DNA from: an uncultured Leptospirales bacterium
GTDB taxonomy: Bacteria; Spirochaetota; UBA4802; UBA5368
Reading direction: 5' to 3'
NCBI GenBank assembly: GCA_964624235.1
Contig: CAZUXY010000019.1
Coordinates: 1,280 to 65,279 of the forward strand
Length of the DNA: 64,000 nucleotides
The notes beneath the pieces were generated by a model. It was not told the origin of the DNA and ran no database searches. It was given only the letters and a program-made list of their open reading frames with translations. This document shows positions 46,622 through 63,376 of the stretch, piece by piece (positions within the stretch are counted from its first letter, which is position 1; every line of letters begins with the position of its first letter). The translations under genes were made by a program, and so were the position numbers.

Positions 46622-47647
46622 TCATTTCCTTGTTTTTAATACCAGATAACATACCACAGCGATAAATCCGCTGGCGATGAAATTTATAATATGATAGCCG
46701 AAGGCCGTGGTAATGGCGTCCTGACGTTCCATGCCCGCGAGCATGTATCCTCCCGCCCAGCCTGCCTCCAGTGTGCCGAAACTGCCGAAGCTGTTGATGG
46801 GCAGCACATTGGCCAGCACCTGTCCCGTCGAGCCGGCGATGGAAAGCAGAAAATTTATTTCCACATTGTACGCCAGAATGGTCACGTAGGCGAAGACGTA
46901 CAGCACCGCCCAGACCAGGATGCTCGTAAACACCAGCACCGGTACTTCCCTCAGGGTGTCGTACTCAACGAACTCACTCACCACCGGCTCCATCTTCTCG
47001 TTGAATTTGACCGTCAGTTTCTTTTTGTCCAGCCGCAACGCCCGCATCACCAGGTTGAAAAAGTCCATACTCCACCTGATGATCCATTTAAGATACAGCA
47101 GCACGATGATGGAAAAAACCAGAAAGCCGATCCCCGCGGCGATAAGGGCGGGAGAGGTGTTTCTGCCGTAATAGAGGGCCACCGATCCCACGAAGAATGC
47201 CGCGACGATGATGAAGTCGTAGATGCGGGTCACCAGCAGCACGTGCAGTCCCTTGGATATTTTCGCGTTGCCGATGGTTTTAAGATAATACACCAGGGTG
47301 AGTTCCCCCGTGCGGGCGGGCAGTATCTGGTTGTAGAAATTCTGATAGCTGGTGACGGCGAACATGGTGAAGAGGCCGATATCCAGGTGCCTCAGCATGG
47401 CGCGATAACGGAGCGCTTTGCACAGGTTTGAAAGGAAGTACACCGCACAGGCGATAAGCGCCATCCACGGATTGGCGTTCTTGAACGAGTTCAACGCTTC
47501 TTTGAGGTCGAGCTTCCACAGAAGCAAGGCCACCAGCACGACCGACACAATGAGGAAAACCATCGTTCGGACATTCAGGGTCCGCTTTCTGTTTCCCGCG
47601 GCCTGGCCCCCTCCTGCATCTTGTAGAGTATCGCCGGTATTCATCAC
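46622..47647 (-). CDS. UPF0104 / lysylphosphatidylglycerol-synthase-TM-like (flippase-like) integral membrane protein
   Basis: 341 aa with about 8 transmembrane helices in the pattern of MprF-TM/UPF0104 proteins, which commonly accompany GT2 glycosyltransferases; directly downstream of a GT2 gene. Confidence 0.55.
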   Translation of the reverse strand: MMNTGDTLQDAGGGQAAGNRKRTLNVRTMVFLIVSVVLVALLLWKLDLKEALNSFKNANPWMALIACAVYFLSNLCKALRYRAMLRHLDIGLFTMFAVTSYQNFYNQILPARTGELTLVYYLKTIGNAKISKGLHVLLVTRIYDFIIVAAFFVGSVALYYGRNTSPALIAAGIGFLVFSIIVLLYLKWIIRWSMDFFNLVMRALRLDKKKLTVKFNEKMEPVVSEFVEYDTLREVPVLVFTSILVWAVLYVFAYVTILAYNVEINFLLSIAGSTGQVLANVLPINSFGSFGTLEAGWAGGYMLAGMERQDAITTAFGYHIINFIASGFIAVVCYLVLKTRK

Positions 47648-47695
47648 CTGGTTCCCATCACAAACGGTACGGTATGGAAAATATGCTCAATATCA

Positions 47696-48619
47696 TCAGC
47701 GGTTGCGGATGTTTTTCACGATCAGTTCCGCCAGCAGCCCGAAGAAAGAGGTCTGCAGGCCGAACAGCACCAGGCCCAGCACCAGGTTTACGTGATCGAC
47801 CGGTTTGGGGAGGTACCCGTACAGGAACAGCGTAACCTCCGCAAGGAAGAGCAGCGTTCCCGCACTGAGGAACACCAGTCCCAGCGTGCCGAAGATCCTC
47901 ATGGGCTTCACCGACACCAGCACGATAAGTATCTGGTAAAAGACCTTGAAGGGGTACTTCATTGACACAAAGGATTTTCCCGTCACCCGTTTTCTGAACC
48001 GCACCGGCACCTGTGCGAAACGCATGCCCTTGTGGTACGAATCGAGCAGTATCTGCTGGGTGTAATTGTAGTCCCCCGGCAGGTTGAACACCTCGAGATA
48101 GTCCCGGTTGATCGCGAAGATACCCGGCTGGCTGTCCTTCACAGGCCATCCGGTGAGGAATTTCATCAGGCGCGTGAATACGATATTCCCCAGACGTCGC
48201 ACCAGGGGCATGGCATACTCGATGCGCTCAAAACGGTCGCCGTAGACCACGTCGGCCTCGTCGTCCAGAATGGGTCTGATGAGGGAGGGGATGTCTTCAG
48301 GATCGTGCTGAAGGTCGGCGTCGAATTTGACCACGATATCGGCGCCGTACCGGCGGGCGCCCATGAGACCGCTCCTGATGGCGGCACCCAGTCCCTGGTT
48401 CACCTTATGAATGACGACACGGTCGGCCCCCGCCTTTCGGGCCATAGCCCGGGTGTCGTCGGTCGAGCCGTCGTCTACCACCAGGATTTTCAGGTCCACG
48501 CCTTGTTTCGCAACGGTTTTGTTTATGGAGTTCAAAGCGTGCACGGTCTCCGTGATCCTTTCCGCCTCGTTATAGGCGGGGATAACGACGAAGAGTGTGT
48601 GTGTATTCGCTTTTTTCAT
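47696..48619 (-). CDS. family 2 glycosyltransferase, polyprenol-phosphate sugar synthase type (DPM1/GtrB/ArnC-like) with C-terminal TM helices
   Basis: FVVIPAYNEAERI, VVDDGSTDDT and DADLQHDP motifs; two C-terminal transmembrane helices. Confidence 0.8.
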   Translation of the reverse strand: MKKANTHTLFVVIPAYNEAERITETVHALNSINKTVAKQGVDLKILVVDDGSTDDTRAMARKAGADRVVIHKVNQGLGAAIRSGLMGARRYGADIVVKFDADLQHDPEDIPSLIRPILDDEADVVYGDRFERIEYAMPLVRRLGNIVFTRLMKFLTGWPVKDSQPGIFAINRDYLEVFNLPGDYNYTQQILLDSYHKGMRFAQVPVRFRKRVTGKSFVSMKYPFKVFYQILIVLVSVKPMRIFGTLGLVFLSAGTLLFLAEVTLFLYGYLPKPVDHVNLVLGLVLFGLQTSFFGLLAELIVKNIRNR

Positions 48620-48672
48620 TTCAGCAAAGCTCTCACGTATGAATTTCCGGTAATTTTCGTTTCCGTAAAACC

Positions 48673-50709
48673 TTATTTCCCTTCGGGATAGATCATTCTT
48701 TTCACCGCAAGGTTCCTCATGAACGTGAAGAATTCCTTCTGGTTGTCTTCAGTCCATCTTATTTGCGCAACGGCCGCGCGGTCTTTCGCGCTAATTCTCC
48801 CCATAATATACTCATCGTTTACCGTGTAATACGAGCTCACCGCCAGGGGATAGTCGGGTCTCTCAGACCAGATCGAAAGCCCTATAAAGGGATTCTCGAC
48901 ATCAATGTTCATCATGTCGAGGATGGTCGGAACGATATCGAGGTTGGTGCATACCGTGGTGTTGATTGTACCCTTCCACTTCCCGTTTCCGGGCAGGAAC
49001 ATGACGCAGGGGATAAAATCATAGCTGGTCTGCCTGAACCCGCGTTTCGATCCGAACAGCTCCATATACTGCATGCCCGGTCCCCTCGCGTGATCGGCCA
49101 CCACCACGATCATGGTGTTGTCATTGTAGGGCGATGCGCGCAGGTAGTCCCGGAACAGTCCGAACGCCTTGTCGGTGCCATAGAGTGTATTGAGTTCCTT
49201 GTTGCCGCGGGCGTTGGGATGTGAATGAAGCGGATCGAAGGGGGGATGCATGTCCAGGGTCGAAATGGTCAGCAGAAAGGGTTTTTTAAGCCGGTTTTCT
49301 TTCAGCATGGAGATCGCGAACAGAAAAACGTCCTCGTCACGAATCCCCCAGTCGCTTTTTCGCTTCCCCTTCGCGAAGGTCTGCAGTTCCAGGCTTTCCC
49401 ACGCGTAAAACCGTTCGTAATTCTGACGGTTGATGAAGGCGCTCTTCATCCCCACGAAGGTGCCGCTCCCTCCCTGCACATGCACCGAGGTGTAGCCGTG
49501 TTTCTTGAGCACATCGGAAATAAATAGAAAACGGCAGGGAATAGGCGGGCGGAAACCCTTCATTTTGTCTTCGTCTTTCAGTTTCTGCACACCCCGGATT
49601 TTTTCCACCAGGTAAAGGCTCGATCCCAAGGTGGCGATCATTCCGCGCAGGGTGGGGAAAGCGGCGTTATACATATTGGTAAAATAACAGCTTTCCTTTA
49701 TGAAGCGGTGAAGGTTCGGGGTAAGTCCCCTGATGCCGTGGATCTCCTCCTGCAGGTAAAACTGGCTGAGGGATTCGGCGAATATTATGATGATATTGGT
49801 GCCGGGTTTTACGACGGGTTTGAGGGGATTCTTCTTTCTGGCATCCAGGTATATGCTCTTTTTAATCAGGGGATAGCCTTCGCTCCCGGAAAACACGCGT
49901 ACACCGCATCTGGACAGTTTCTCAACGGTATCATCAGAGAGGACCGCTGTTTTCGGAGGTTCGGATGCGAAGGCATAGTCGATAAATGAACCTATCGCTT
50001 TTTTCTCGGGCAGTTCCGCGAACATCTGCGACCGGGCTTTCGCGTCATCCCCGGAGGGCATTATCATCACACCGGCGCTCAAAAGCGCCACAATCAGTAT
50101 ATACACGGTGACATTGGGAACCAGTATCCTGGAAAACCGTGGCGTGTTCCGTGAAAGCTCACCCTCGGCAACAGGATACTCATCGACGGCGTCCATGCGG
50201 AACCACAGGCGCTTAAGAATAAGTACAAACCCGATGGTGAAGAGCAGAAGGGTCCCGATCAGGAGGGCCGACGTGGGAGTGGCAACGAAGGTGGTGCCGT
50301 CCGAGTAGAACGCGTGAAACCAGAACTCGTTGTCGATATGCTGGCCCGCGAAATACAATGCCGCCCAGTCCATGGCCCGTAGCGCCGAAAAAACAAAAAA
50401 CAATACCCCGAGCGGGAACGTTATGGTTCTGTGACGATACTTTCTGCCCCGAAAAAACCGGAAGAGCCCCATAATGCCGGCGGTAACCAGCAGGGAGAAA
50501 ACCCCGTACCCAAAAAGGAGCACCAGCAGGTCGCCTGCGACGGCGCCGGCGTACGCGTAGGTGGCGATACCTATGATCGAAAAGTGCCATGCCATCAGGT
50601 ATAAAATCAGATACGAAGAGAGCATGCAGGGCGAAAGCACTTTCAACTTCATGCCGCGGTCCGCACGCATGAATGTCAGCAGATGTCCCATGAAACCGGT
50701 ATCTTTCAT
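48673..50709 (-). CDS. sulfatase-family (alkaline phosphatase superfamily) membrane transferase, LtaS/MdoB/EptA-like
   Basis: About 200 aa N-terminal with multiple transmembrane helices, followed by an extracytoplasmic sulfatase-like domain (NIIIIFAESL..., DMHPPFD, VVVADHARGPG). Confidence 0.7.
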   Translation of the reverse strand: MKDTGFMGHLLTFMRADRGMKLKVLSPCMLSSYLILYLMAWHFSIIGIATYAYAGAVAGDLLVLLFGYGVFSLLVTAGIMGLFRFFRGRKYRHRTITFPLGVLFFVFSALRAMDWAALYFAGQHIDNEFWFHAFYSDGTTFVATPTSALLIGTLLLFTIGFVLILKRLWFRMDAVDEYPVAEGELSRNTPRFSRILVPNVTVYILIVALLSAGVMIMPSGDDAKARSQMFAELPEKKAIGSFIDYAFASEPPKTAVLSDDTVEKLSRCGVRVFSGSEGYPLIKKSIYLDARKKNPLKPVVKPGTNIIIIFAESLSQFYLQEEIHGIRGLTPNLHRFIKESCYFTNMYNAAFPTLRGMIATLGSSLYLVEKIRGVQKLKDEDKMKGFRPPIPCRFLFISDVLKKHGYTSVHVQGGSGTFVGMKSAFINRQNYERFYAWESLELQTFAKGKRKSDWGIRDEDVFLFAISMLKENRLKKPFLLTISTLDMHPPFDPLHSHPNARGNKELNTLYGTDKAFGLFRDYLRASPYNDNTMIVVVADHARGPGMQYMELFGSKRGFRQTSYDFIPCVMFLPGNGKWKGTINTTVCTNLDIVPTILDMMNIDVENPFIGLSIWSERPDYPLAVSSYYTVNDEYIMGRISAKDRAAVAQIRWTEDNQKEFFTFMRNLAVKRMIYPEGK

Positions 50710-50766
50710 TCCTTCTCCAGTCGATACGCATCCGGTAAGATTTGTGATTGATGTAACACGGCGTGT

Positions 50767-51780
50767 TCAGCTGATGTCAACCGCATTACGCGCCGCCAGC
50801 CGGTACACATCACCGGTGGTTTTGAACGCCGCCGCGGACGCATAGCCGGTAACGGTTTTCAGTATATTCGAATAGAATGACGGCCGTCCGGCCATCAGGT
50901 GCGGATGCACATTGAGCACCATTACACCCTGCAGGGCGACGGTGTCCTCCACAAATCTACGGAGCGATCCCATGACCGCGGATTCAGGCACCGCGGCGTC
51001 CCTTAGATAATTGTCGTCCTGTATCATCAGAGGGATCTCCCACATGCCGAATTTTTCATAATAAAAGGGATAGGGTATTCTCACGCTGGTGTATATTGCG
51101 GAACCGATCTGCAGGGATGAATCGTATTTTAGCCCGGTTTCCGCCGCGGCGCGAAAAAAGTTTGCGCTCCTGGAAAGCGCCGGAGTCCGCGTGCCGACGA
51201 CCTCATGCTCCCGGAGCCGTTCAATCGCTTTCGCCATCTTTCGCTTCATGAACGGAACGGAACGAAAGGAAAATCCCTGGTCGTGACGGTAGCCGTGCAG
51301 CCCGATCTCGAAACCGTGCTCCGACAGGTACCGGAGGTCCCGTTCGTCGATGGCGTAGTTGTCATGCGTGAGCAGGTTGAAGGTCGACGGGACCCCGGCT
51401 TCCATGTCCATGGAGGCCATGGTGCGTACAAAACCGTATCCCTCATCGTTGTCGACATCGTGAGAAAGGCAGATCACCGCCTTTTTACCCCACCACGGCC
51501 GCGATCGCAATCGCCCCACCCTTGCGGCGATGAGGCGGTTCTCGGGGAAATCCAGCGGGTAATGCAGCCTTAGTCCCCTGGAAGGGTTTCTCAGTTTCTT
51601 CGCGATATCGGTGATGAAATACCGCGCTCCGGTGGGCAGGTAATTAAGCACGGGGGCGACGTATTTACGCAGGTATTTCTCTTTCAGGGAGGAGGAATAA
51701 TCATGAAAGAGCGCATGTATATCAATACGCTCCTCCATGATAACGCGGTACTGCGCACTGAGGTTCCCGGGAACCCTCAT
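50767..51780 (-). CDS. polysaccharide deacetylase family protein (NodB/CE4-like)
   Basis: VICLSHDVDND motif and His-rich motifs (GLHGYRHD, LNVHPHLM) typical of CE4-like deacetylases, the family that includes ArnD and PgaB. Confidence 0.65.
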   Translation of the reverse strand: MRVPGNLSAQYRVIMEERIDIHALFHDYSSSLKEKYLRKYVAPVLNYLPTGARYFITDIAKKLRNPSRGLRLHYPLDFPENRLIAARVGRLRSRPWWGKKAVICLSHDVDNDEGYGFVRTMASMDMEAGVPSTFNLLTHDNYAIDERDLRYLSEHGFEIGLHGYRHDQGFSFRSVPFMKRKMAKAIERLREHEVVGTRTPALSRSANFFRAAAETGLKYDSSLQIGSAIYTSVRIPYPFYYEKFGMWEIPLMIQDDNYLRDAAVPESAVMGSLRRFVEDTVALQGVMVLNVHPHLMAGRPSFYSNILKTVTGYASAAAFKTTGDVYRLAARNAVDIS

Positions 51781-51795
51781 AATCCCCGTTAACGC

Positions 51796-52752
51796 CTATT
51801 TCCCTTCCTGCATGTCGAAGAACATGGCGAAGAGGAGAAACTGGAAACCGCTGATGAGCATCAGGGCCACCAGTATGCTCATGGAGGGAGTCACGTGGGT
51901 ATCGCCCAGGAAAAACTTGTCGATGATCAGGTATATCCCCAGGGCAAGCCCGAGGGGTATCAGCAGTATGGACAGGTAATAGAAAAATACCAGCGGATGA
52001 AAATCCAGGTAGAGATACTTGAAATTCAAACGCCAGAAGAACATTCTCAGGTACATGGGGGCGTTTTTCAGGGCGTAATTGAGTCCCTTGATCTGGGACT
52101 GGCGTTCCCCTTCCAGGTAGATGGCGGTGCGCGGAACGTCCATCATCTTGAATCCGTACGCGTTCAGCCGGGCAAGAAAATCGATGTTGTAGCTGTACTT
52201 CCGCCACGCCTTTTCCCAGTTGATGGTATCCACCGCCCGCTTGGATATGGCGGTATACCCGTCGACTATGTCAGAAACCTTATAGTAACCGGTGGCGATC
52301 TTCCCCAGGGCGGTGATTATCCAGTTCCCGTAAAAACGTATTCTGGGCATCTTCTTAATGGTTTTTTCGAACTGTCCCAGCATGAAACGGTTACCCTTGG
52401 TATAGTCGGCCTTTCCGTCGATAATGGGGTCCAGCAGATTGGTGACCTCGTTCAGGGGCATCTGGTTGTCCCCGCCGACCACCACTATTACATCGTATCC
52501 GTCTTTGCTGGCCTGCAGGTATCCCGTGATGATGGACCCGCCGCACCCCTGGTTCACCTCGTGCTTCAGCAGGGTAACCCGTTTGTCCTTTTTGGCGCGG
52601 CCGAGGATGACCTCGTTCTGCCTGTCAGGGCTCTTATCGTCTACGACATATATGCGGTCGATCAGTCTGGGCGCGCCGTCGATGGTGGGTCCGATCAGAC
52701 GTTCCTCGTTGTAGGCGGGGACGACCAGGGCTATTTTTTTCTTGCGATACAT
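51796..52752 (-). CDS. family 2 glycosyltransferase, polyprenol-phosphate sugar synthase type with C-terminal TM helices
   Basis: ALVVPAYNEERLI, VVDDKSPD and VVGGDNQMP motifs; C-terminal transmembrane helices. Confidence 0.8.
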   Translation of the reverse strand: MYRKKKIALVVPAYNEERLIGPTIDGAPRLIDRIYVVDDKSPDRQNEVILGRAKKDKRVTLLKHEVNQGCGGSIITGYLQASKDGYDVIVVVGGDNQMPLNEVTNLLDPIIDGKADYTKGNRFMLGQFEKTIKKMPRIRFYGNWIITALGKIATGYYKVSDIVDGYTAISKRAVDTINWEKAWRKYSYNIDFLARLNAYGFKMMDVPRTAIYLEGERQSQIKGLNYALKNAPMYLRMFFWRLNFKYLYLDFHPLVFFYYLSILLIPLGLALGIYLIIDKFFLGDTHVTPSMSILVALMLISGFQFLLFAMFFDMQEGK

Positions 52753-52772
52753 TTGCGTGCTCCGGTAATGTC

Positions 52773-53873
52773 TTATTTCGCCGTCGTGTTGACGATGTCG
52801 GCGATGAAATTTATCTCCTCATCGGTGATCTCGGGGAAGATGGGGAGGGCGATAACCCTGCCCGCCAGCGCTTCCGCGACCGGCAGGTCCCCGCGTTTGT
52901 ATCCCAGGTACGAAAACGCCGGCTGCAGATGCAGCGGGACGGGATACTGGTTGCGCACGTCGACCTCCTTTTTTTTCAGGGCCGCCATCACCTCGTCCCG
53001 GTTGTCGACCTGTATCACATAGAGGTGATAGACGTGTTCGCACCCGTCGGCGACCTTCGGGGTCACCACCCGCGCGTTGCCGCGGAACAGTACATTATAT
53101 TTTTCCGCGTTTTCCTGACGTTTTCTTGTCCATTCCTCGATATACTTCAGCTTCACCGAGAGTATGGCCGCCTGTATGCCGTCGATCCTGAGGTTGTACC
53201 CCACGACATCGTGCTCGTAGTTGTTCAGCCGGCCGTGATCGAAGATCTTCGTGGCCAGGGTATAGAGCTTTTCATCCGCCGTCGCTACGGCGCCCGCGTC
53301 CCCGTAGGCGCCCAGGTTCTTCCCGGGGTTGAAACTGAAGGCGTTGATGTCGCCGAAAGTACCGACAAACCTGCCCTTGTATTTCGCGAAACAGGCGTGC
53401 GCGCAGTCCTCAAGCACCTTCAGGTTATGTTTCTTCGCGATTTTCATCAACGCGTCCATGTCGGCGGGATTGCCGTACAGGTGGACAGGGACGATCGCCT
53501 TCGTTTTTTCCGTTACCGCCTTTTCTACCTTTGCGGGATCGATGTTGTACGTCACGGGGTCGATATCCACCAGCACCGGTTTCGCTTTCAGGTGATGAAT
53601 GGGTTCGGCGGTGGCGATAAACGTATGGGTGGTGGTGATCACCTCGTCCCCGGGCTGGAACCCCAGAGCGTTGGCCGCTATGACCAGCGCCGTGCTCCCG
53701 CTGGAACACCCGATCACGTGTGTGAGACCGTGCAGCTTCGCGTACTCTCCCTCGAAGATCTTCGCGTATTTGCCCTGCACAAAGGCTTTCGACCTGATCA
53801 CCTCGTCGATGCTCTGCTGTATGCCGGTTTTGATCTGTTCGTACTGTCGGTTTAAATCTACAAATGGAATCAT
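52773..53873 (-). CDS. DegT/DnrJ/EryC1/StrS-family sugar aminotransferase (WbpE/ArnB/PglE-like)
   Basis: Pattern typical of PLP-dependent nucleotide-sugar aminotransferases, with the PLP-lysine in FSFNPGKNLGAYGDAGAV; 366 aa. Confidence 0.85.
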   Translation of the reverse strand: MIPFVDLNRQYEQIKTGIQQSIDEVIRSKAFVQGKYAKIFEGEYAKLHGLTHVIGCSSGSTALVIAANALGFQPGDEVITTTHTFIATAEPIHHLKAKPVLVDIDPVTYNIDPAKVEKAVTEKTKAIVPVHLYGNPADMDALMKIAKKHNLKVLEDCAHACFAKYKGRFVGTFGDINAFSFNPGKNLGAYGDAGAVATADEKLYTLATKIFDHGRLNNYEHDVVGYNLRIDGIQAAILSVKLKYIEEWTRKRQENAEKYNVLFRGNARVVTPKVADGCEHVYHLYVIQVDNRDEVMAALKKKEVDVRNQYPVPLHLQPAFSYLGYKRGDLPVAEALAGRVIALPIFPEITDEEINFIADIVNTTAK

Positions 53874-53884
53874 TTCACGCCTCG

Positions 53885-54496
53885 TTAGTAGTGTATCTCA
53901 CGTATGAATTTCGCCGGATAACCGGCGTATATGGCGCCCCCGTCGACGTCGGCAACGACCACGCTGCCCGCACCGACCAGGGCCCCCTCCCCCACCGTCA
54001 CTCCGGGTATCAGGGTGACGTTTGCGCCTATTTTCGCCTTCTTCTTTACCGTGACGGGTTTGAGCTTCTTCCTGCCCTTAGGTGACTGCGGATAGGGATC
54101 GTTGGTCACCACCACGTTGGGTCCGATCCAGCATCCTTCCTCAAGGACCGTGTATTCCGGGATAAAAACCATTGAGTGTACCCGCACCCCCGTGCCGATT
54201 AGCACATGGTGTTCAATCACGCTGTGGGTGCCGATGCTGACATTGTCGCCGATTGTATTGAGCTCCCGTATGTTCGCCTTGTGCCCGGTCATGAAGTTGT
54301 TCCCGATCGCGTTGCCGGCATAAATGACCGTATGGGAACGTATCACCGCGTTGTCGCCGATCACCGTCGGCTCGTCCGTGTAGCCGGCAAAAGGACAACC
54401 GATGATGCAGTAGTCCTCGACAACACAATTCTTCCCGAAACGTACATTCGGATGGATGACGGCGGTCTTCGCGATCACTGCAGTCCCAGCCGGCAT
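53885..54496 (-). CDS. hexapeptide-repeat (left-handed beta-helix) sugar N-acetyltransferase (WbpD/PglD-like)
   Basis: Repeated [LIV]GxxxxI hexapeptides throughout (VIGDNAVI, IGDNVSIG, IGANVTLIPGVTVG). Confidence 0.8.
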   Translation of the reverse strand: MPAGTAVIAKTAVIHPNVRFGKNCVVEDYCIIGCPFAGYTDEPTVIGDNAVIRSHTVIYAGNAIGNNFMTGHKANIRELNTIGDNVSIGTHSVIEHHVLIGTGVRVHSMVFIPEYTVLEEGCWIGPNVVVTNDPYPQSPKGRKKLKPVTVKKKAKIGANVTLIPGVTVGEGALVGAGSVVVADVDGGAIYAGYPAKFIREIHY

Positions 54497-55539
54497 TTCT
54501 GCGGCTTGAAGCGCAGAAACACCTCTTTGCCCGTTTCGATTGATTCGTAAATCGCCGAGATCAGTTCCAGACTCTTTCTGCCTTCCAGACCGTCCACCAG
54601 GGCCTTTTTATTGTTGAGGATGCTGTCGACCACGTTTTCGTAGTATTCCTGGTGCCCGAAACCGTAGACGTTGGGGGGGTTGACCGAATATTTTTTCAAT
54701 ACGTCGGCGTCGTCATCCCGTGGTTCAAGGAAGTTCCATATCTTCATCTCGTTGACCGCGAACCCTCCGATCTCCACCGTGCCGCGCTCACCCAGTATGG
54801 AAAGAGAACCTTCAAGGTCCTTCGGCCGCGCCGCGGTGGTCGCCTCGATGATACCCAGGGCGCCGTTACGGAATTTCAGTACGGCGATTCCCGTGTCCTC
54901 GGTCTCGACCTTTACCAGCGCCGTCGCGCTCTTGGCGAATACCGAGTCGACATCGCCCATCATCCACTCCAGCAGGTCGACGTGATGGCTGGCCTGGTTG
55001 GCGAAAACGCCCCCGTCCAGCGCCCAGGTGCCGCGCCACGCGTCCTGGTCGTAATAATCCTGCCTGCGGCACCATCGTACCCTCACTGTTCCCAGCACCA
55101 GTTTGCCGAACCTTCCCTGCTCAAGGGAGTCTCTCAGTTTCTGTACGGGCACGTTGTACCGGTTCTGCTTTATGACGAAAAGTTTGATCTGGTTCCCGTC
55201 GCAGGCCTTGATCATGGCATCGGCGTCGTCGAGCGTGAGGGCCATCGGTTTTTCAACGACGATATGTTTCCGGTACTTGACCAGGTTGAGCACATGCCGC
55301 GCGTGCATGCCGCTGGGGGTAAGGACCGACACCGCGTCGATCTTTTTTTCCTTTTCCATCATCTGGTCCATGTCGGTGTACCACGGAACGTCGAACAGTC
55401 CGCCGAACTCCTGGGCTCTTTCCTTAACCACGTCACAGACCGCCGCCAGGCGGGCGTTCTTGACCGATCCGCTGTGCAAGAGTTCCGCGTGGCGTTTCCT
55501 CGCGATCCTGCCGCATCCTACGAGTGCGAAATTAAGCAT
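54475..55539 (-). CDS. Gfo/Idh/MocA-family NAD-dependent sugar oxidoreductase (WbpB-like)
   Basis: N-terminal Rossmann motif ALVGCGRIARKRH and the EKPMALTLDDA motif. AAGAGG ribosome-binding site 8 nt upstream. 3' end overlaps the acetyltransferase start by 22 nt. Confidence 0.85.
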   Translation of the reverse strand: MLNFALVGCGRIARKRHAELLHSGSVKNARLAAVCDVVKERAQEFGGLFDVPWYTDMDQMMEKEKKIDAVSVLTPSGMHARHVLNLVKYRKHIVVEKPMALTLDDADAMIKACDGNQIKLFVIKQNRYNVPVQKLRDSLEQGRFGKLVLGTVRVRWCRRQDYYDQDAWRGTWALDGGVFANQASHHVDLLEWMMGDVDSVFAKSATALVKVETEDTGIAVLKFRNGALGIIEATTAARPKDLEGSLSILGERGTVEIGGFAVNEMKIWNFLEPRDDDADVLKKYSVNPPNVYGFGHQEYYENVVDSILNNKKALVDGLEGRKSLELISAIYESIETGKEVFLRFKPQKCRLGLQ

Positions 55540-55723
55540 TGAATACCTCTTTGTTTAGAAAAATAACTTAGATGACCACCAGCCCGTTTTTTTTTCAATT
55601 ACATTTTCATTTAACCGGCTGAAGGAATCCACACAACACATTTTTCATGTTTACTATTCATTCTGCCCTGAGAGGGAACCATAATCCCGGTTACAATAGA
55701 CACTTTGTTTCGGAACGGATTTG

Positions 55724-57433
55724 CTATGGAATAAAGCGGTACATATAGCTCTTAATGCCACCCCTGGTTTCAAACGCGGCAACCGGTTTGAAGTGCCCGG
55801 TGTCTTTACCCTTTTCCCGTACCAGAAGGAGCAACGGGGCTTTCTTGTCAATCGCATTCTTGTCGTTCACCCGCAGCCGACGGATATAAAAATCATCTAT
55901 AAAAATATAGTCCGCTCCCAATCCCCTGAGTTCCCTGACCAGTGAATCGAGGTCTTTGCTCCTTAACGATGCCGTGGGTATAAAACTGTCTCTATCGAGG
56001 CGGGCGTAATAGGCCGTAACCGGTACCTCGGTAATGAGCAGTTTTTCTCCCTGTGTGTAATGCTCCCTGAACCAGATTCCGGCTTTCTTGAACTCCACAC
56101 GTCGCAGGCTGTAATGGTCCATGGCCTTTAATCCATACACCACTGAAAAATTAATGATCACGCCGCAACAGAGCACCAGTAAAATTCGCGCGGAAAGATT
56201 TTTCAATTCGATACCGTTCCGCACGAGCCACAGGGCCGCCAGGGTAAACAGAACCGCGAATATCCAGTGGCCCGCGCTCCCACGCAGCCAGAGCAGATAC
56301 CATCCTGTAATATACGCAACAACGGCGACGGCTGAAAGAGAGTAAACCGCACGCCTTGTCCATACTAACGATAAAGAACCTGTTTTACGAAGCAGCCACG
56401 GGTAAAGCCCCTCTGAAAGTCCGTAGAAAAGAAAAAGAAACCATGCCCAAAGCAGGGGCATTACATAGCGTTCCTTCGTATTCTGATATACCATATGTAC
56501 AATCACAAAGCCCGCCACAAACACCATGACCGGCGCGGCTTCATGCCGGTGCCGGCGAACCAGGAGCACCACCCCCCAGGTTATGGCGGTAATGATGAAA
56601 ATACCCGTTAGCAGCGCAAAAACGTAAGCGGGCAGCTGCACCGCCAGGCTTTTCGAAAAATACGCGTCCGTGCCCATCCAGGCCATGTACCCCGATATCG
56701 TGAGGATGGTATCGACCAGATATTCATAGGTACAGGGTCCCCGGCCGGCGATTTCCTTTACATATACGTTGCCATACCACATGCTCGCCACAAAGAGCGC
56801 CACCGCTCCGGTCGACGCCAGGCCTCCGAGGACCATCGATACAACCCGTTTTTTGTGGAAGAAGAAATCCCTGAACATGGCCGCCGGAACGGCGAACACC
56901 GAGTCCCACTTAGTTGAAGCGGCGAAGAAGGAGGTGAAATATGCCCATCTGGAGTTTTTTAATGTTAAATATATGGTGAGGACTATCAGCAGGCTCAACA
57001 GCATTTCCAGTTCGGAGTTCACGGCGGTATACACGGTAAAAATATTAAGTCCCAGGAAAAGCACGGCGAACATGCCGGTCCATCGCGATAAAAACCGCCG
57101 GTAGATCAAAAAGGTGATGATCACATAAGGGACATACAGGCATATATTTAAGAGCATCGCCGTCAGATATACTTTGTCGTGTGCGGAAAAGGGATTAATA
57201 AGGGTAAAGAAAGCGAGCACCATGTGGTAAACCGGCATAAAACCATGGGGGTTGTGGAGGGGAGCATCCCCTTTGAGCCAGCCCAGGGCCAGCACGCGAT
57301 GCTGACCGATAAAGTCTGCGGTGGGTGTCTCAAAATAGTTGAAGTAGAAAAGCGCGTAGCCGAAGACAAGAACAAGGACCATGAACGCACCATGTAAACT
57401 TTTTTTAATTTCGATCCCGCGTTCAGCTTTCAC
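55724..57433 (-). CDS. GT-C fold membrane glycosyltransferase (ArnT/PMT/GT39-83-like), paralogue 1
   Basis: 569 aa with about 11 transmembrane helices in the N-terminal two-thirds and a C-terminal soluble domain. ArnT/PMT-like layout; the 5' end overlaps the upstream paralogue by 4 nt. Confidence 0.6.
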   Translation of the reverse strand: MKAERGIEIKKSLHGAFMVLVLVFGYALFYFNYFETPTADFIGQHRVLALGWLKGDAPLHNPHGFMPVYHMVLAFFTLINPFSAHDKVYLTAMLLNICLYVPYVIITFLIYRRFLSRWTGMFAVLFLGLNIFTVYTAVNSELEMLLSLLIVLTIYLTLKNSRWAYFTSFFAASTKWDSVFAVPAAMFRDFFFHKKRVVSMVLGGLASTGAVALFVASMWYGNVYVKEIAGRGPCTYEYLVDTILTISGYMAWMGTDAYFSKSLAVQLPAYVFALLTGIFIITAITWGVVLLVRRHRHEAAPVMVFVAGFVIVHMVYQNTKERYVMPLLWAWFLFLFYGLSEGLYPWLLRKTGSLSLVWTRRAVYSLSAVAVVAYITGWYLLWLRGSAGHWIFAVLFTLAALWLVRNGIELKNLSARILLVLCCGVIINFSVVYGLKAMDHYSLRRVEFKKAGIWFREHYTQGEKLLITEVPVTAYYARLDRDSFIPTASLRSKDLDSLVRELRGLGADYIFIDDFYIRRLRVNDKNAIDKKAPLLLLVREKGKDTGHFKPVAAFETRGGIKSYMYRFIP

Positions 57434-59160
57434 TTTTTTGTCTTTTCCAGGAGTATAAAATCTACAGGTCCGTTGCGGTCTTCCAGCACCTTACGCCAGC
57501 CCGGCAGGGGTTTCACCAGCCGCAGTCCTTTCTCAGTGTCCATGGTGAGATATTCTCCGAATATTCCTCTGACGGCCCGGTAGACTTCCTGATGGATGAG
57601 GTAATAGCGAATATTTGGATTTGAATTTATTAATTTATTAAAAGAATCTATATTCCTGAATTTATCGTGATGCAGTCTTCTGGATTCAAGACCAGGTTCC
57701 AGCAGCAGCCAGGTGTAATGATGCATTCCCTTGGTTAATATTTTATCGTTTTTAATTATATGCTTTTTTAAATACGCGTTTAGCTCTTGGTAGCCATCAT
57801 CGTAGCGATGGGTATGGCAGGGATGCGGGATGGTACGCATCATCGGATACATAACAATGAACACTGTCAGTATGAGTAACAGCGCTGTTTTCAGTAAACC
57901 TCCATAATGAACCGATGGGCGGTTCCGGAACACACTCCATTCGCTTTCCAACCACTGTTTTAAAATGACGATCACCCCCCCGGCGGCGAAGGCGATAAAA
58001 ATAACCGTTACCGGCAGCAAATACCGTCGGTTGGGGGAAGTGATGCTGTACCATGAAAGCGGCAGGTAAAAACCCAGCACCAGCAGAAGAATCAGGACCT
58101 TCTTTCTTCTGTCGAAACCCGACCGGATAAAACCCGGCACAGACAACGCTATCAGCACCAGCGACGTTACCGCGGCCGTTACCTTGCCGAATAATCCGGT
58201 GGTGTCGGGCAGCGACCATGGGACATAGTGCAGGGAAAAGGAATAGAGGGAATGGAGCAGTATCCTGAACTCCCGGGCGAGACCCCAGAAAAACCTGAAC
58301 AGGTTGTCTTTCAGGCTTTTTCGGAATATATCGAAAAAAGTTGCGGTCTGGTCGCCGCTCCAGTCGGCGTCCCAGGCGAGCATCTCAACGTTCATGTTGT
58401 AAAACGGGAACTTAAAAGCGACCGTGTTTCTTACCAGCAACGGTAAAGTGACTATCAGAAACAGAAACGCGAACAGCCATAGATATTTGTTTTTCAGCAG
58501 CTTCCAGAACCTGCCGCGCACATCATAGAGAAGAAACAACCCGAATCCGAAAGGTATGAAGAGACCGCTCGGTTTGGTCATGTAGGCCAGCCCGGTGAAT
58601 ACTCCCGCGACAGCCCAGTATTTCGGATCGTCAAGCCCGCGAATAATGCAGTAAAAAGCCATTGAGGTGAAAATAATAAGGAGGGTCTCGCACGAGACCA
58701 TGGTGGTCTGATGCATGAAAATATCATTGGCCGTCAGAAGGCATATCGACAGCAGCGCTGTTTCCACGTTACAGAGCTTTTTAATGATAAAATAAAATAC
58801 ATATACAAAGAAAAGCCCCAGCAACAGGTTCAGTATTTTTATTGCGATGAAGTAATCCACACTCCGTTCATAGAAAAAAGAAATGATAAATGGAAAGAGA
58901 GGATGCTGGTTTGTTTCCAGGAAGGTGCCGGTAAACATGGATTTGATAAATCCGATTACATTGCCCATCTGGAGTATCTGTTGCACGGTATTGATGAAAT
59001 ACGAGGTATCGGTTTCGCCGATTAAAGGGTGCTGCCCCAGGGAATAAATTCCGGTGAGCAGGTACACAACTCCTACCAGCACCAGGCAGGCAATCGTTAA
59101 AAAGTTACTGTATTTTTTCGCAATAGTGATCATTTTTATCGATGGTATCTTCATTTTCAT
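57430..59160 (-). CDS. GT-C fold membrane glycosyltransferase (ArnT-like), paralogue 2
   Basis: 576 aa. Clear paralogue of the gene at 59365-61074, sharing blocks NQHPLFPF, FMHQTTMVSCE, LAYMTKPSGLFIPFGFGLFLLYD, LPLLVRNT, LHSLY.FS.HYVP and LPLSWYSITSPNRRY. Confidence 0.65.
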   Translation of the reverse strand: MKMKIPSIKMITIAKKYSNFLTIACLVLVGVVYLLTGIYSLGQHPLIGETDTSYFINTVQQILQMGNVIGFIKSMFTGTFLETNQHPLFPFIISFFYERSVDYFIAIKILNLLLGLFFVYVFYFIIKKLCNVETALLSICLLTANDIFMHQTTMVSCETLLIIFTSMAFYCIIRGLDDPKYWAVAGVFTGLAYMTKPSGLFIPFGFGLFLLYDVRGRFWKLLKNKYLWLFAFLFLIVTLPLLVRNTVAFKFPFYNMNVEMLAWDADWSGDQTATFFDIFRKSLKDNLFRFFWGLAREFRILLHSLYSFSLHYVPWSLPDTTGLFGKVTAAVTSLVLIALSVPGFIRSGFDRRKKVLILLLVLGFYLPLSWYSITSPNRRYLLPVTVIFIAFAAGGVIVILKQWLESEWSVFRNRPSVHYGGLLKTALLLILTVFIVMYPMMRTIPHPCHTHRYDDGYQELNAYLKKHIIKNDKILTKGMHHYTWLLLEPGLESRRLHHDKFRNIDSFNKLINSNPNIRYYLIHQEVYRAVRGIFGEYLTMDTEKGLRLVKPLPGWRKVLEDRNGPVDFILLEKTKK

Positions 59161-59364
59161 AACAGGAAGTATTAAGGCAACCTCTATATATTAGATTGGT
59201 TCTATTATGTCTCCTCGAAAATTCAGGAGTTAAGATGACCGTATTACTAATTTTGTTAATTATTAGAAGTTCCCTTAATATTCTTTTTCATTAACTATTT
59301 TCGAATTATTTTTTAATAGTATATGTATAAGAAGTCGCAATGGAATACAACATACAGAAGGATT

Positions 59365-61074
59365 CTATTGTCGCTCGTATAACAGATATTGCACAGGCGG
59401 CAGTTCATCCTTTTTTATGATGCGCCATCCCGGAATGTCGCTTTTTACTATAAATCCCCGTGTGTAATCAAAGGACAGATACTCCGAAAAGATATTTTTC
59501 GTCTGTCTGTAAGCTTCCGGTTGCATTAGAAAATATTTTACCTGCGCATGCGACCTGGTAAAGTCCACGAATGCTTTCAAGTTTTTAAAATATGTTATTC
59601 CACACATCTTGCCGTTCAGCTCGGGATAGAGCAGGACCCAGGGATAATGATGTTCCCCTCTGGTCATATACAATTCACCTGCTTTTAAATGACTTTTAAA
59701 AAAAGCCGCCAGTTCATGATAGTCATCCTCCAGTTTCCAGGTGCGTCGCGGATCGGGGATATGTCGAGCATACAGGTATATTCCATTGAAAAGCAATAGA
59801 AAGATAAAGATAATTATTTTTATTGAGCTTGCCGGGCTCAGAGATGCCGATCCACCCTTGATTACAGCGGACTTTTCATACAAACGATACCATGACCGTA
59901 CAAGAATTATTGAAAAAAATATCAGAAAGAAAAACATCACCGGCATGATATACCGCCGGTTCGGTGATGTAATGCTGTACCATGACAGGGGAAGATAAAA
60001 TCCTGTAATAAGAAAAACGATAAGACTTTTTTTCCTTTTCCCTGTTTTTGATTTTATAAAGCCCAAGACTGACAGACCAAACATAAGCATGGAAAGAACC
60101 GCAGCGGTTACTTTTCTCACTATGCCGGCATTGTCTTCAGAGAAAGGAGGCACGTAGTGGATCGAAAACGGATACAGTGAATGCAACAACACCCTGAACT
60201 CTTTCCCAAGTCCTTTAATAAAACGCAGGCTGTTCTCTCCAATATCCTTTTTCAGGATATCTTTGAACTGGGCGTGTTTTTCTGCCTTTCCCCAGTCTTC
60301 ATCCATTGCAAGGATTCTGACATTATAATTGTAGAAAGGAAATTTATATACGAGAGTATTCCGAACCAGCAGAGGGAGTGAAACAACGATAAAACAAATG
60401 ATAAACCCCCAGAGATACCTGTTCTTCAGCAGACGTGTAATGCGAAGCCTGCAGTCATACAGCAAAAAGAGGGAAAATCCGAAGAGAATAAACAAACCGC
60501 TTGCTTTAGTCATGTAGGTGAGGCCCGCGAATATTCCAGCTGGAATCCAGCAACGGTTATCATCGAGACCTTTAATCAGGAAATAAAAAGTTATTGTGGA
60601 GAACACTATCAACAAAGGCTCGCAGGAAACCATGGTGGTCTGATGCATGAATACATCATTGGCTATCACCAGTCCCATCACGACCAGTGCGTAAATCTCA
60701 TTACACTCCCGCCGGATCATTACATATATCATTAAGACAAAAACCAGCCCCAGAATAAAATTGAGTATTTTCACCCACACAAAATAATTCATACTGCGCT
60801 CAAAGAAGAAGGTGATAAAAAATGGGAAAAGGGGATGCTGGTTACTCAGAGTGAAGTCCCCGGTGAATAATGATTTCAATGTCTCAAGTATTCCGCCATG
60901 TCGTACGATTTCAGCGACATATGCAAAAAAAGCGCTGGTATCAGTCTCACCGGGATAAAGATGCACACCGAGATTATACAGACCCACGAAAACATAGGTT
61001 AATCCCATCAGTCCTGGAGCAATCCAGGAAAGCACACGGTCGAGAATGGCCGATGTTGACGTTTCTTTCTTCAT
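59365..61074 (-). CDS. GT-C fold membrane glycosyltransferase (ArnT-like), paralogue 3
   Basis: 569 aa; the tandem paralogue of 57430-59160 (same conserved blocks). Its start overlaps the stop of the upstream GT2 gene (ATGA). Confidence 0.65.
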   Translation of the reverse strand: MKKETSTSAILDRVLSWIAPGLMGLTYVFVGLYNLGVHLYPGETDTSAFFAYVAEIVRHGGILETLKSLFTGDFTLSNQHPLFPFFITFFFERSMNYFVWVKILNFILGLVFVLMIYVMIRRECNEIYALVVMGLVIANDVFMHQTTMVSCEPLLIVFSTITFYFLIKGLDDNRCWIPAGIFAGLTYMTKASGLFILFGFSLFLLYDCRLRITRLLKNRYLWGFIICFIVVSLPLLVRNTLVYKFPFYNYNVRILAMDEDWGKAEKHAQFKDILKKDIGENSLRFIKGLGKEFRVLLHSLYPFSIHYVPPFSEDNAGIVRKVTAAVLSMLMFGLSVLGFIKSKTGKRKKSLIVFLITGFYLPLSWYSITSPNRRYIMPVMFFFLIFFSIILVRSWYRLYEKSAVIKGGSASLSPASSIKIIIFIFLLLFNGIYLYARHIPDPRRTWKLEDDYHELAAFFKSHLKAGELYMTRGEHHYPWVLLYPELNGKMCGITYFKNLKAFVDFTRSHAQVKYFLMQPEAYRQTKNIFSEYLSFDYTRGFIVKSDIPGWRIIKKDELPPVQYLLYERQ

Positions 61075-62027
61075 CGCTGTTCAGTCGAGCTTTTTCTCAG
61101 CCGGTACTGTATATCCTCCATGATCTTTCTGTTCGTCGCCAGCAGATCGGCAAGGAAAGCGACCAGCACGGTCTGAAAGCCGATACCCAGAAGGATGGAA
61201 GCGAGTATGAGTGACTGGGTTTTGCCGGTGGGATTAATATCGGTAAAATAATAATAAAGGAACCGTATCCCTATCAAAGAACCGAGGGTTATAAAGATTG
61301 CGCCGATACTCATGAAAAAAACAAAGGGTTTATAGATCACGAATATCCGGATAACGGTCAGCACGGACCTGGTGATATAAGAAAAGACGCTTTTTACCAG
61401 ACGGGATGGTCTCAGGTCCGTGTTGACCCGCACCGGCACCGTCAGTACCGCCATGTTTTTCAGACCGGCCTGTATGATGGTTTCCAGGGTATAGGTATAA
61501 TCGTTGAAAACGTTGAGCCGCATTGCCGCTTCCCGGCTCAGGGCCCTGAACCCGCTTGGAGCGTCGGGGACCGAGGTACGGCTGACGATCCTCACCACCC
61601 AGCTTCCCAGCTTCTGTAACAGCTTTTTCAGGATTGAGAAGTGACTCATGTCCGCAATGGGTCGTTCGCCTATAACGATGTCCGCCCTGCCCTCCATCAC
61701 GGGTCGCACCAGCTTTGGAATGTCACGGGCGTCATACTGGTTGTCCGCGTCGGTGTTGACAATAATGTCCGCACCCAGCCTGACGCAGGCGTCAAGTCCC
61801 GCCATGAATCCCCGAGCCAGGCCCTGGTTCTTCGTGAAACTCACGATATGGTCGACCCCGTTCTTACGGGCTGTTTCAACCGTCCCGTCGGTGCTGCCGT
61901 CGTTTATGACCAGCCATTCGACTTTTTGGATCCCTTTGATCTTGCGGGGGAGTTCCTTGAGCACCGTCGCCAGGGTCGCTTCCTCGTTGAAGCAGGGTAT
62001 CTGTATTATCAATTTCATTATTTTCAC
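61071..62027 (-). CDS. family 2 glycosyltransferase, polyprenol-phosphate sugar synthase type (ArnC/GtrB/LgmA-like)
   Basis: IIQIPCFNEEATL, VINDGSTDGT and NTDADNQYD motifs with two C-terminal transmembrane helices; translationally coupled to the GT-C paralogue downstream. Confidence 0.8.
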   Translation of the reverse strand: MKIMKLIIQIPCFNEEATLATVLKELPRKIKGIQKVEWLVINDGSTDGTVETARKNGVDHIVSFTKNQGLARGFMAGLDACVRLGADIIVNTDADNQYDARDIPKLVRPVMEGRADIVIGERPIADMSHFSILKKLLQKLGSWVVRIVSRTSVPDAPSGFRALSREAAMRLNVFNDYTYTLETIIQAGLKNMAVLTVPVRVNTDLRPSRLVKSVFSYITRSVLTVIRIFVIYKPFVFFMSIGAIFITLGSLIGIRFLYYYFTDINPTGKTQSLILASILLGIGFQTVLVAFLADLLATNRKIMEDIQYRLRKSSTEQR

Positions 62028-62339
62028 TTCAAAGTGTTCCGTACTCTCACTGTATTATCAGGTATTATGTAATGTTCGAAAATTATATTTATCGCCAGAC
62101 ACTATTCACGCAAGAATAAATTTGGTAAATCTTCAGCGGATAATAATGATTTTCAACAATGGTTTTTCCGTGGTGTGATAGGATGAAAATCGATAATAAG
62201 AATTTCCGCGGTATTTACTGTATTAACAAAAAGTTTTCCTCAAAAAATCGTACCCGCCTGATATGGGACGGGAATGATAATTATAAAACAAACTCCCACC
62301 GATGTCTGATCCATGTCACATACGGGGAGGAGGGATGCA

Positions 62340-62374
62340 ATAACAATACACGCAGTGTCGCGGGACACTGCGTG
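62340..62374 (-). terminator. possible terminator hairpin after alpha/beta-hydrolase gene
   Basis: Perfect 9-bp stem CGCAGTGTC/GACACTGCG with a 4-nt loop, 4 nt after the stop; a moderately T-rich tail on the minus strand. Confidence 0.35.
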
Positions 62375-62377
62375 CCA

Positions 62378-63376
62378 TCACGGTAAGACGTTACGCACCG
62401 CCTTTACGATGAGTTCCGGTTCGCCCAGATGAATGTTTCTTGAACTTGAATCCGCAGAAATTCTTGTATGGCGCGGGAACAGCGCTTCCAGCGTACGATA
62501 GGAATCATCCGCGATCGCTTCAATCTTTCTTGCTTCGTCCACCGGGACGCCGAAGAAGAGCATTTCCCTGTAGTATTTTATTTGCGATCGAGTCACCAGC
62601 ACCATGGGCATTCCATAAGATTTCCGCGGTTTCGCAATTCCTTCCAGGCGCTCTTTCAGTCCTTTGCCGGATTCGCCCAGGGCGGCCTCATAGGTTTTTC
62701 CCAGTGAAAAGTTCTCAATAATTAAAGGTCTGAGGTCTTCGTGAACATCCATATAAGGGATTATCTTAAGCCATCGGACTATACCCATCCTCCCGAAAAA
62801 GCTCCCGATTTTATATGAAGAACGCTGATCTATGAAGTTCTTGTATACCGCTTTCTCAAGCTCATCCCGGAACCTTTGATACTTTACCGGAAACGGGTCA
62901 ATCAGCGCTATTCCCTTAACCCATCCATGATGTCGACGTACATATTCAATCACGTACAGCGCACCGATATCATGACCGACCAGTATTAATGGCGGAAGGA
63001 TGCGCATCCTCCGGATGAGCATGTCCAGATCTTCAACCGGTGTTACCTCCCCCTTCGGGGCCGGGTCACTCCAGCCGTACCCTGCCCGGTCATAGGTAAG
63101 TACTTTCGCAACACGGGAGAGCTCGTTTTGCACCCTCCACCACTCCGGCGAAGCCGATGCCAGCCCCGCCTCGATGATCACCGTGGCACTTCCCGTTCCC
63201 TTTAGCGTCGCGTAAAGTCTTCTTCCACCGATGTCCACCAGCTTTCCCGGTGGAGCAGGATGTTTGAGCCAGGTTTCCGACCGGGTTCTGTTACTTGAAT
63301 AAATATCAAAGGCTTTATAAAACAATACAAGGAGCACAATGAATGAAAATAACGATATCCATTTGATTACTTTCAT
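62378..63376 (-). CDS. membrane-anchored alpha/beta-hydrolase with Asp nucleophile elbow (epoxide-hydrolase/haloalkane-dehalogenase-like)
   Basis: N-terminal transmembrane anchor (MKVIKWISLFSFIVLLVLF); alpha/beta-hydrolase fold. The nucleophile elbow reads VGHDIGA (G-H-D-x-G) where Ser hydrolases have GHSxG. Confidence 0.6.
   Translation of the reverse strand: MKVIKWISLFSFIVLLVLFYKAFDIYSSNRTRSETWLKHPAPPGKLVDIGGRRLYATLKGTGSATVIIEAGLASASPEWWRVQNELSRVAKVLTYDRAGYGWSDPAPKGEVTPVEDLDMLIRRMRILPPLILVGHDIGALYVIEYVRRHHGWVKGIALIDPFPVKYQRFRDELEKAVYKNFIDQRSSYKIGSFFGRMGIVRWLKIIPYMDVHEDLRPLIIENFSLGKTYEAALGESGKGLKERLEGIAKPRKSYGMPMVLVTRSQIKYYREMLFFGVPVDEARKIEAIADDSYRTLEALFPRHTRISADSSSRNIHLGEPELIVKAVRNVLP

Follow-up and report, generated by a model that had tools for sequence, protein, structure and literature searches.

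A minus-strand locus of an uncultured Spirochaetota bacterium, found in the 64-kb stretch of DNA analyzed here (the window), probably encodes a composite tool set for extracytoplasmic decoration of the envelope, with a conserved core that would follow a seven-step pathway of Arn logic. Twelve genes had been predicted on this strand, and Pfam and NCBIfam profile searches recovered the expected family for all 12 of them. The accompanying Arn/Lgm-like reading holds with refinements: seven core genes match the Arn steps one-to-one, and by its gene content the locus looks like a composite of this core, extra three-component modules (two more GT2 enzymes and two paralogous GT-C enzymes) and a glycerophosphate-transferase-like enzyme.

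In the proposed pathway, a WlbA-like dehydrogenase would oxidize UDP-GlcNAc, or perhaps UDP-GlcNAcA, at C3, a DegT enzyme would aminate this position, and a hexapeptide transferase would N-acetylate the new amine, yielding a UDP-2,3-diacetamido-2,3-dideoxyhexose. On the cytoplasmic side of the membrane, GT2b would then move the sugar onto undecaprenyl (polyprenyl) phosphate. Removal of one N-acetyl group by a cytoplasmic CE4 enzyme would expose a free cationic amine and commit the intermediate, a UPF0104 protein may flip the lipid-bound amino sugar into the outer leaflet, and GT-C3 would pass the sugar on to an acceptor in the periplasm. The individual activities are predicted from homology, and the lipid carrier, the sugar and the acceptor are inferred; the substrate could be GlcNAc or GlcNAcA, and either acetyl group might be removed. 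Candidate acceptors include LPS/lipid A, a lipoteichoic-acid-like glycolipid, and periplasmic or outer-membrane proteins; lipid A is one candidate among several.

The nucleotide-sugar chemistry had been predicted to be of the WbpB/WbpE/WbpD type, and the solved relatives of the first three enzymes support this view. All coordinates below refer to the minus strand of the window. The WlbA/WbpB-like Gfo/Idh/MocA sugar-nucleotide 3-dehydrogenase (54475..55539), which would convert UDP-GlcNAc(A) into a 3-keto sugar in step 1, contains three Pfam GFO_IDH_MocA domains and matches WlbA structures best (3q2k, 311 bits; 3q2i, 283 bits), the next match reaching only 86 bits. Its orthologues, with 77-80% identity, stand first in the conserved module of L003, L005, L006 and L008. 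The DegT-family PLP aminotransferase (52773..53873), a candidate for the 3-amination of step 2, scored 391 bits against DegT_DnrJ_EryC1 of Pfam. Its top PDB matches are sugar 3-aminotransferases (7b0d, 345 bits; QdtB, 305; DesV, 274; WbpE, 260), whereas ArnB reached only 138-155 bits, and it fails the NCBIfam ArnB model (194 bits versus a cut-off of 631). The left-handed beta-helix (hexapeptide) N-acetyltransferase (53885..54478, with a start possibly up to 54496), assigned putatively to the 3-N-acetylation of step 3, gave 90.5 bits with Pfam Hexapep; its best solved relatives are 3-amino-sugar N-acetyltransferases, namely QdtC (138 bits), 7s43 and WlbB (3mqg, 65 bits). Its 197-aa form, which is that of the public gene call, overlaps the stop of the Gfo/Idh/MocA gene. 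Neither a WbpA-type 6-dehydrogenase nor a WbpI-type 2-epimerase was found in the locus or among the scanned ORFs of the window, and the product therefore appears more likely to be GlcNAc3NAc than ManNAc3NAcA.

Judged by sequence, all three GT2 enzymes are of the polyprenyl-phosphate type. Each carries two C-terminal TM helices, and a joint profile of the three families matched, in the PDB and along the entire length, DPMS (5mlz, 104 bits), ArnC (about 80 bits) and GtrB; other GT2s match this profile over the N-terminal ~100 residues only. GT2b (51796..52752), the ArnC/GtrB/DPM1-like candidate for loading the sugar onto the lipid carrier in step 4, combines these helices with a GT-A domain (Glycos_transf_2, 71.6 bits), and its best NCBIfam matches are AglJ, PpgS and a Dol-P-hexose transferase. 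Its gene directly precedes the CE4 gene in L003, L005, L006, L008 and L011. It displays the motif GGD(N/H)Q, as against DAD(N/L)Q in its relatives, which could mean an atypical donor or metal chemistry. GT2a (61071..62027; Glycos_transf_2, 76.5 bits; NCBIfam AglJ, 118, and PpgS, 66 bits) belongs to an accessory module and has GT-C1/2-type neighbors in L003, L004 and L008 and a GT-C3-type neighbor in L038. GT2c (47696..48619; Glycos_transf_2, 98 bits), also accessory, matches AglJ (121 bits), PpgS (92), the Dol-P-hexose transferase (80) and ArnC (71.5) of NCBIfam over its full length, and its orthologue in L008 shares 68% identity.

The cytoplasmic CE4-fold de-N-acetylase (50767..51780), which may perform the ArnD-like deacylation of the lipid-linked sugar in step 5, belongs to a rare family with only 36 clusters among 5.8 billion proteins. 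It slightly exceeds the Pfam cut-offs of WbmS-like (31.8 versus 27 bits), Polysacc_deac_1 (24.2 versus 23.1) and DUF2334 (26.1 versus 26), and topology prediction found neither a TM helix nor a signal peptide. The top PDB folds for its AF2 model (pLDDT 93.3) are all CE4, with ArnD 8t0j at an E value of 3.2e-8 and a TMt of 0.63. This fold, the cytoplasmic location and the invariant catalytic-type residues (H107, D108, D110, H162, H166, R198, P200, D255 and H292) together suggest its role. The candidate flippase of step 6 is a UPF0104/LPG_synthase_TM (MprF-flippase-domain) membrane protein (46622..47647) that scored 130 bits with PF03706 and 79.9 bits with TIGR00374 (cut-off 43.2); a homologue comes after the GT-C3-family gene in L005, L006, L008, L038 and L039.

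These proteins also allow another interpretation, which we consider unlikely, in which GT2b, the CE4 enzyme and the UPF0104 protein form a synthase-deacetylase-flippase (SDF) system that makes and flips a cationic amino-glycolipid as an end product and the GT-Cs act on another substrate. Many relatives of the CE4 enzyme likewise match DUF2334, a family that we take to correspond to COG3233. If so, the locus deacetylase comes from a family related to that of GpgD, which belongs to COG3233 (PMC12713373). The combination of a glycosyltransferase, a deacetylase and a UPF0104 protein fits the GpgSDF and HexSDF systems (PMC12713373, PMC10128005). Even these characterized systems lack an experimental demonstration of flipping by UPF0104 proteins (PMC12713373, PMC10128005), which tempers step 6 of the main model. 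Close to the GT-C3-family loci of L005, L006 and L036 are pairs of GT4 and LPG_synthase_TM genes, and an Omnitrophota contig carries the GT2b-CE4 pair with GT4, DUF354 and AsnB-like genes but no GT-C; not every such pair therefore supplies a GT-C. However, the known synthases of such systems are soluble GT-B enzymes (one GT4, one MGDG-synthase-like), while GT2b is membrane-anchored and has the architecture of DPMS, ArnC and GtrB, its nearest solved relatives. GT-C enzymes are known to use polyprenyl-(di)phosphate-linked donors, and in every Spirochaetota minimal module a GT-C gene lies between the CE4 and UPF0104 genes and abuts the former (in L005 the two abut or overlap).

GT-C3 (55724..57433), the divergent GT-C membrane glycosyltransferase to which the periplasmic transfer of step 7 is assigned, remains under the PMT_2 cut-off (only 17.8 versus 26.1 bits) and has the GT-C fold according to structure and profile comparison. 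It belongs to a separate, rare family, apart from the accessory enzymes GT-C1 (59365..61074; PMT_2, 52.6 and PMT, 37.6 bits) and GT-C2 (57430..59160; 69.6 and 45.6 bits), which exceed both cut-offs and are paralogues with 47% identity. GT-C1 contains a GETDTS loop behind TM1 with an invariant Asp, and GT-C2 has only 21 homologue clusters. Domain searches thus recovered the GT-C/ArnT fold as well as the CE4 domain, and the anticipated number of three GT-C enzymes is correct, although they comprise two paralogues and one member of another family. The proposal that they provide three acceptor or linkage specificities for one donor is too simple, because the locus encodes three lipid-sugar synthases, not one. 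Since a GT-C3-family gene pairs with a GT2a-type synthase in L038, the assignment of GT2 donors to GT-C enzymes in the window is ambiguous; GT2a and GT2c, as polyprenyl-phosphate sugar synthases, would add other sugars together with GT-C1 and GT-C2.

The organization of the genes modifies the original prediction in part. A GT2 translationally coupled to three GT-C genes had been described, and overlaps of 4 nt exist in this block solely between GT2a and GT-C1 and between GT-C2 and GT-C3; GT-C1 and GT-C2 lie 204 nt or more apart, with a gap that holds a promoter-like site (59233-59204), and the chain is therefore broken. The 184-nt break is exact between GT-C3 and the Gfo/Idh/MocA gene. The upper boundary at 63376 proved to be Met24 of a thirteenth gene that had gone undescribed. 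This gene (62378..63376) encodes a membrane-anchored alpha/beta-hydrolase-fold protein (Abhydrolase_1, 43.7 bits; one N-terminal TM helix) and forms its own transcription unit; after it come a 12-bp hairpin (62375-62348) and then a promoter-like site (62308-62280). It is a possible accessory partner. The gene of its L036 orthologue (35% identity, E 1e-70) shows translational coupling with a PMT_2 GT-C gene and points away from a neighbor of the GT-C3 family, in a layout identical to that of L037, and the gene is absent from L005, L006 and L008.

Comparison with other genomes indicates that the gene arrangement is no product of chance. All 12 genes occur in the Spirochaetia MAG L008 with 49-80% amino-acid identity, and two other Spirochaetota contigs (L005/L009 and L006) carry exactly Gfo-Hex-DegT-GT2b-CE4-GT-C3-UPF0104. 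A plain three-component form appears in L038 (GT2-GT-C3-UPF0104) and L039 (GT-C3-UPF0104). The locus is accordingly syntenic in related genomes rather than scattered. An ordinary O-antigen, capsule or EPS cluster, in which conventional cytoplasmic GT2s extend a 2,3-diacetamido-sugar repeat unit and a WbmS/PgaB-like CE4 acts on the polymer, is very unlikely. The matches to WlbA, WlbB, WbpE and WbmS-like proteins recall classic parts of O-antigen loci, and distant CE4 homologues (30-36% identity) reside in glycan clusters with soluble-looking GT2 matches. Nevertheless, domain searches of the 13 genes recovered no Wzx, Wzy, Wzz, ABC-transporter or initiating phosphoglycosyltransferase family, the seven-gene minimal module lacks polymerization and export genes, and the synthase architecture of three out of three GT2s, the three GT-C enzymes and a CE4 protein devoid of a signal peptide all oppose this reading.

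The remaining accessory enzyme (48673..50709) is an LtaS/OpgB/GacH-like member of the alkaline phosphatase superfamily and a candidate glycerophosphate transferase, in which 5 N-terminal TM helices precede an extracytoplasmic domain (Sulfatase, 93.1 bits). Its best NCBIfam matches, phosphoglycerol transferase I/OpgB (82 bits) and LtaS (53 bits), are all far under the cut-offs, and its best PDB matches are VP1736 (3lxq, 68 bits) and LtaS/LtaP. The gene occurs in L003 and L008 and is absent from the minimal modules (L005, L006), which places it outside the core. Within the composite model, this enzyme would probably transfer sn-glycerol phosphate from phosphatidylglycerol onto one accessory sugar, as GacH/SccH do in streptococci. 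In a doubtful version of the main model with a defined acceptor, it would instead polymerize glycerol phosphate on a glycolipid anchor, and the GT2/UPF0104/GT-C sets would glycosylate this lipoteichoic-acid-like polymer in CsbB/GtcA/YfhO-like fashion. The amino sugar would then assume the charge-modulating role of D-alanylation. Some treponemes possess LTA-like glycolipids, and the spirochaetal host, the LtaS-like topology, the LtaS/LtaP matches and the GT4 + UPF0104 glycolipid-type gene pairs near related loci agree with this variant, as does the precedent of three-component LTA glycosylation (PMC7389260). On the other hand, the best-matching family is the OpgB-type single-transfer phosphoglycerol transferase, with scores far below its cut-off, and polymerase and single-transfer activities are indistinguishable by sequence.

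Among known systems, Arn (Pmr), which places L-Ara4N on lipid A in E. coli and Salmonella (ArnA, B, C, D, E/F, T), shares its order of steps with the locus: a UDP-sugar is oxidized, transaminated by a PLP enzyme, transiently N-acylated and moved onto Und-P by a GT2, then deacylated by a CE4 enzyme on the cytoplasmic side, flipped, and transferred by a GT-C. Formylation by ArnA and deformylation by ArnD are paralleled by acetylation and deacetylation, and ArnC, ArnD and ArnT are among the nearest solved structural or profile matches of the GT2, CE4 and GT-C3 proteins. The locus differs in lacking ArnA, in acting on C3 of a HexNAc rather than C4 of a pentose, in using an acetyl instead of a formyl group, and in its UPF0104 flippase candidate, as opposed to the SMR-like ArnE/F. 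No locus protein reaches the NCBIfam equivalog cut-off of an Arn enzyme, and none is an Arn orthologue.

Lipid A hexosamine systems (Bordetella LgmABCD; Francisella FlmF2/NaxD/FlmK) and the mycobacterial GalN system PpgS/Rv3779 also load a HexNAc onto polyprenyl phosphate through a GT2, deacetylate it on the carrier and transfer it to an envelope acceptor by a GT-C. They draw on the housekeeping donors UDP-GlcNAc or UDP-GalNAc and are not known to require dedicated sugar-nucleotide genes, and NaxD is a YdjC-type rather than a CE4 deacetylase. PpgS is among the best NCBIfam matches of all three GT2s; none of these systems is known to include a UPF0104 protein or a partner resembling LtaS. With the WlbA/WlbC/WlbB (WbpB/WbpE/WbpD) route to UDP-2,3-diacetamido-2,3-dideoxy sugars, the locus shares a dehydrogenase by far nearest to WlbA and an aminotransferase and acetyltransferase of the 3-amino-sugar classes, but its sugar would go to a polyprenyl-phosphate GT2, not to an O-unit glycosyltransferase.

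The GpgSDF system of P. aeruginosa, which forms GlcN-PG, and the HexSDF system of C. difficile, which forms the aminohexosyl glycolipid HNHDRG (PMC12713373, PMC10128005), resemble the locus in their UPF0104/MprF-like triad and cationic amino-sugar lipid; their synthases, however, act on glycerolipids, the flipped lipid is the end product, and both lack a GT-C and dedicated sugar-nucleotide genes. The streptococcal side-chain systems GacI/J/K/L + GacH and SccN/M/P/Q + SccH likewise combine, within a single locus, several Und-P-sugar synthase/GT-C pairs with an LtaS-family enzyme that adds glycerol phosphate to the transferred sugar (GacI/GacL/GacH, bioRxiv 10.1101/180810 and 10.1101/337519; SccN/M/P/Q and GroP, PMC11754754), yet they are Gram-positive rhamnopolysaccharide loci with backbone genes alongside, a plain Glc or GlcNAc donor and no on-carrier deacetylase. 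Three-component periplasmic glycosylation of the GtrA/GtrB/GtrC or CsbB/GtcA/YfhO type (PMC11127046, PMC7389260) provides the precedent for joining a flippase and a GT-C transferase to a polyprenyl-phosphate sugar synthase of the GT2 type that carries C-terminal TM helices, and the GT-C3 family occurs in exactly this plain form in L038. Compared with these systems, the locus has a UPF0104 flippase candidate instead of GtrA, Wzx or SMR, and its core adds a three-step sugar-nucleotide pathway of its own and an on-carrier deacetylase.

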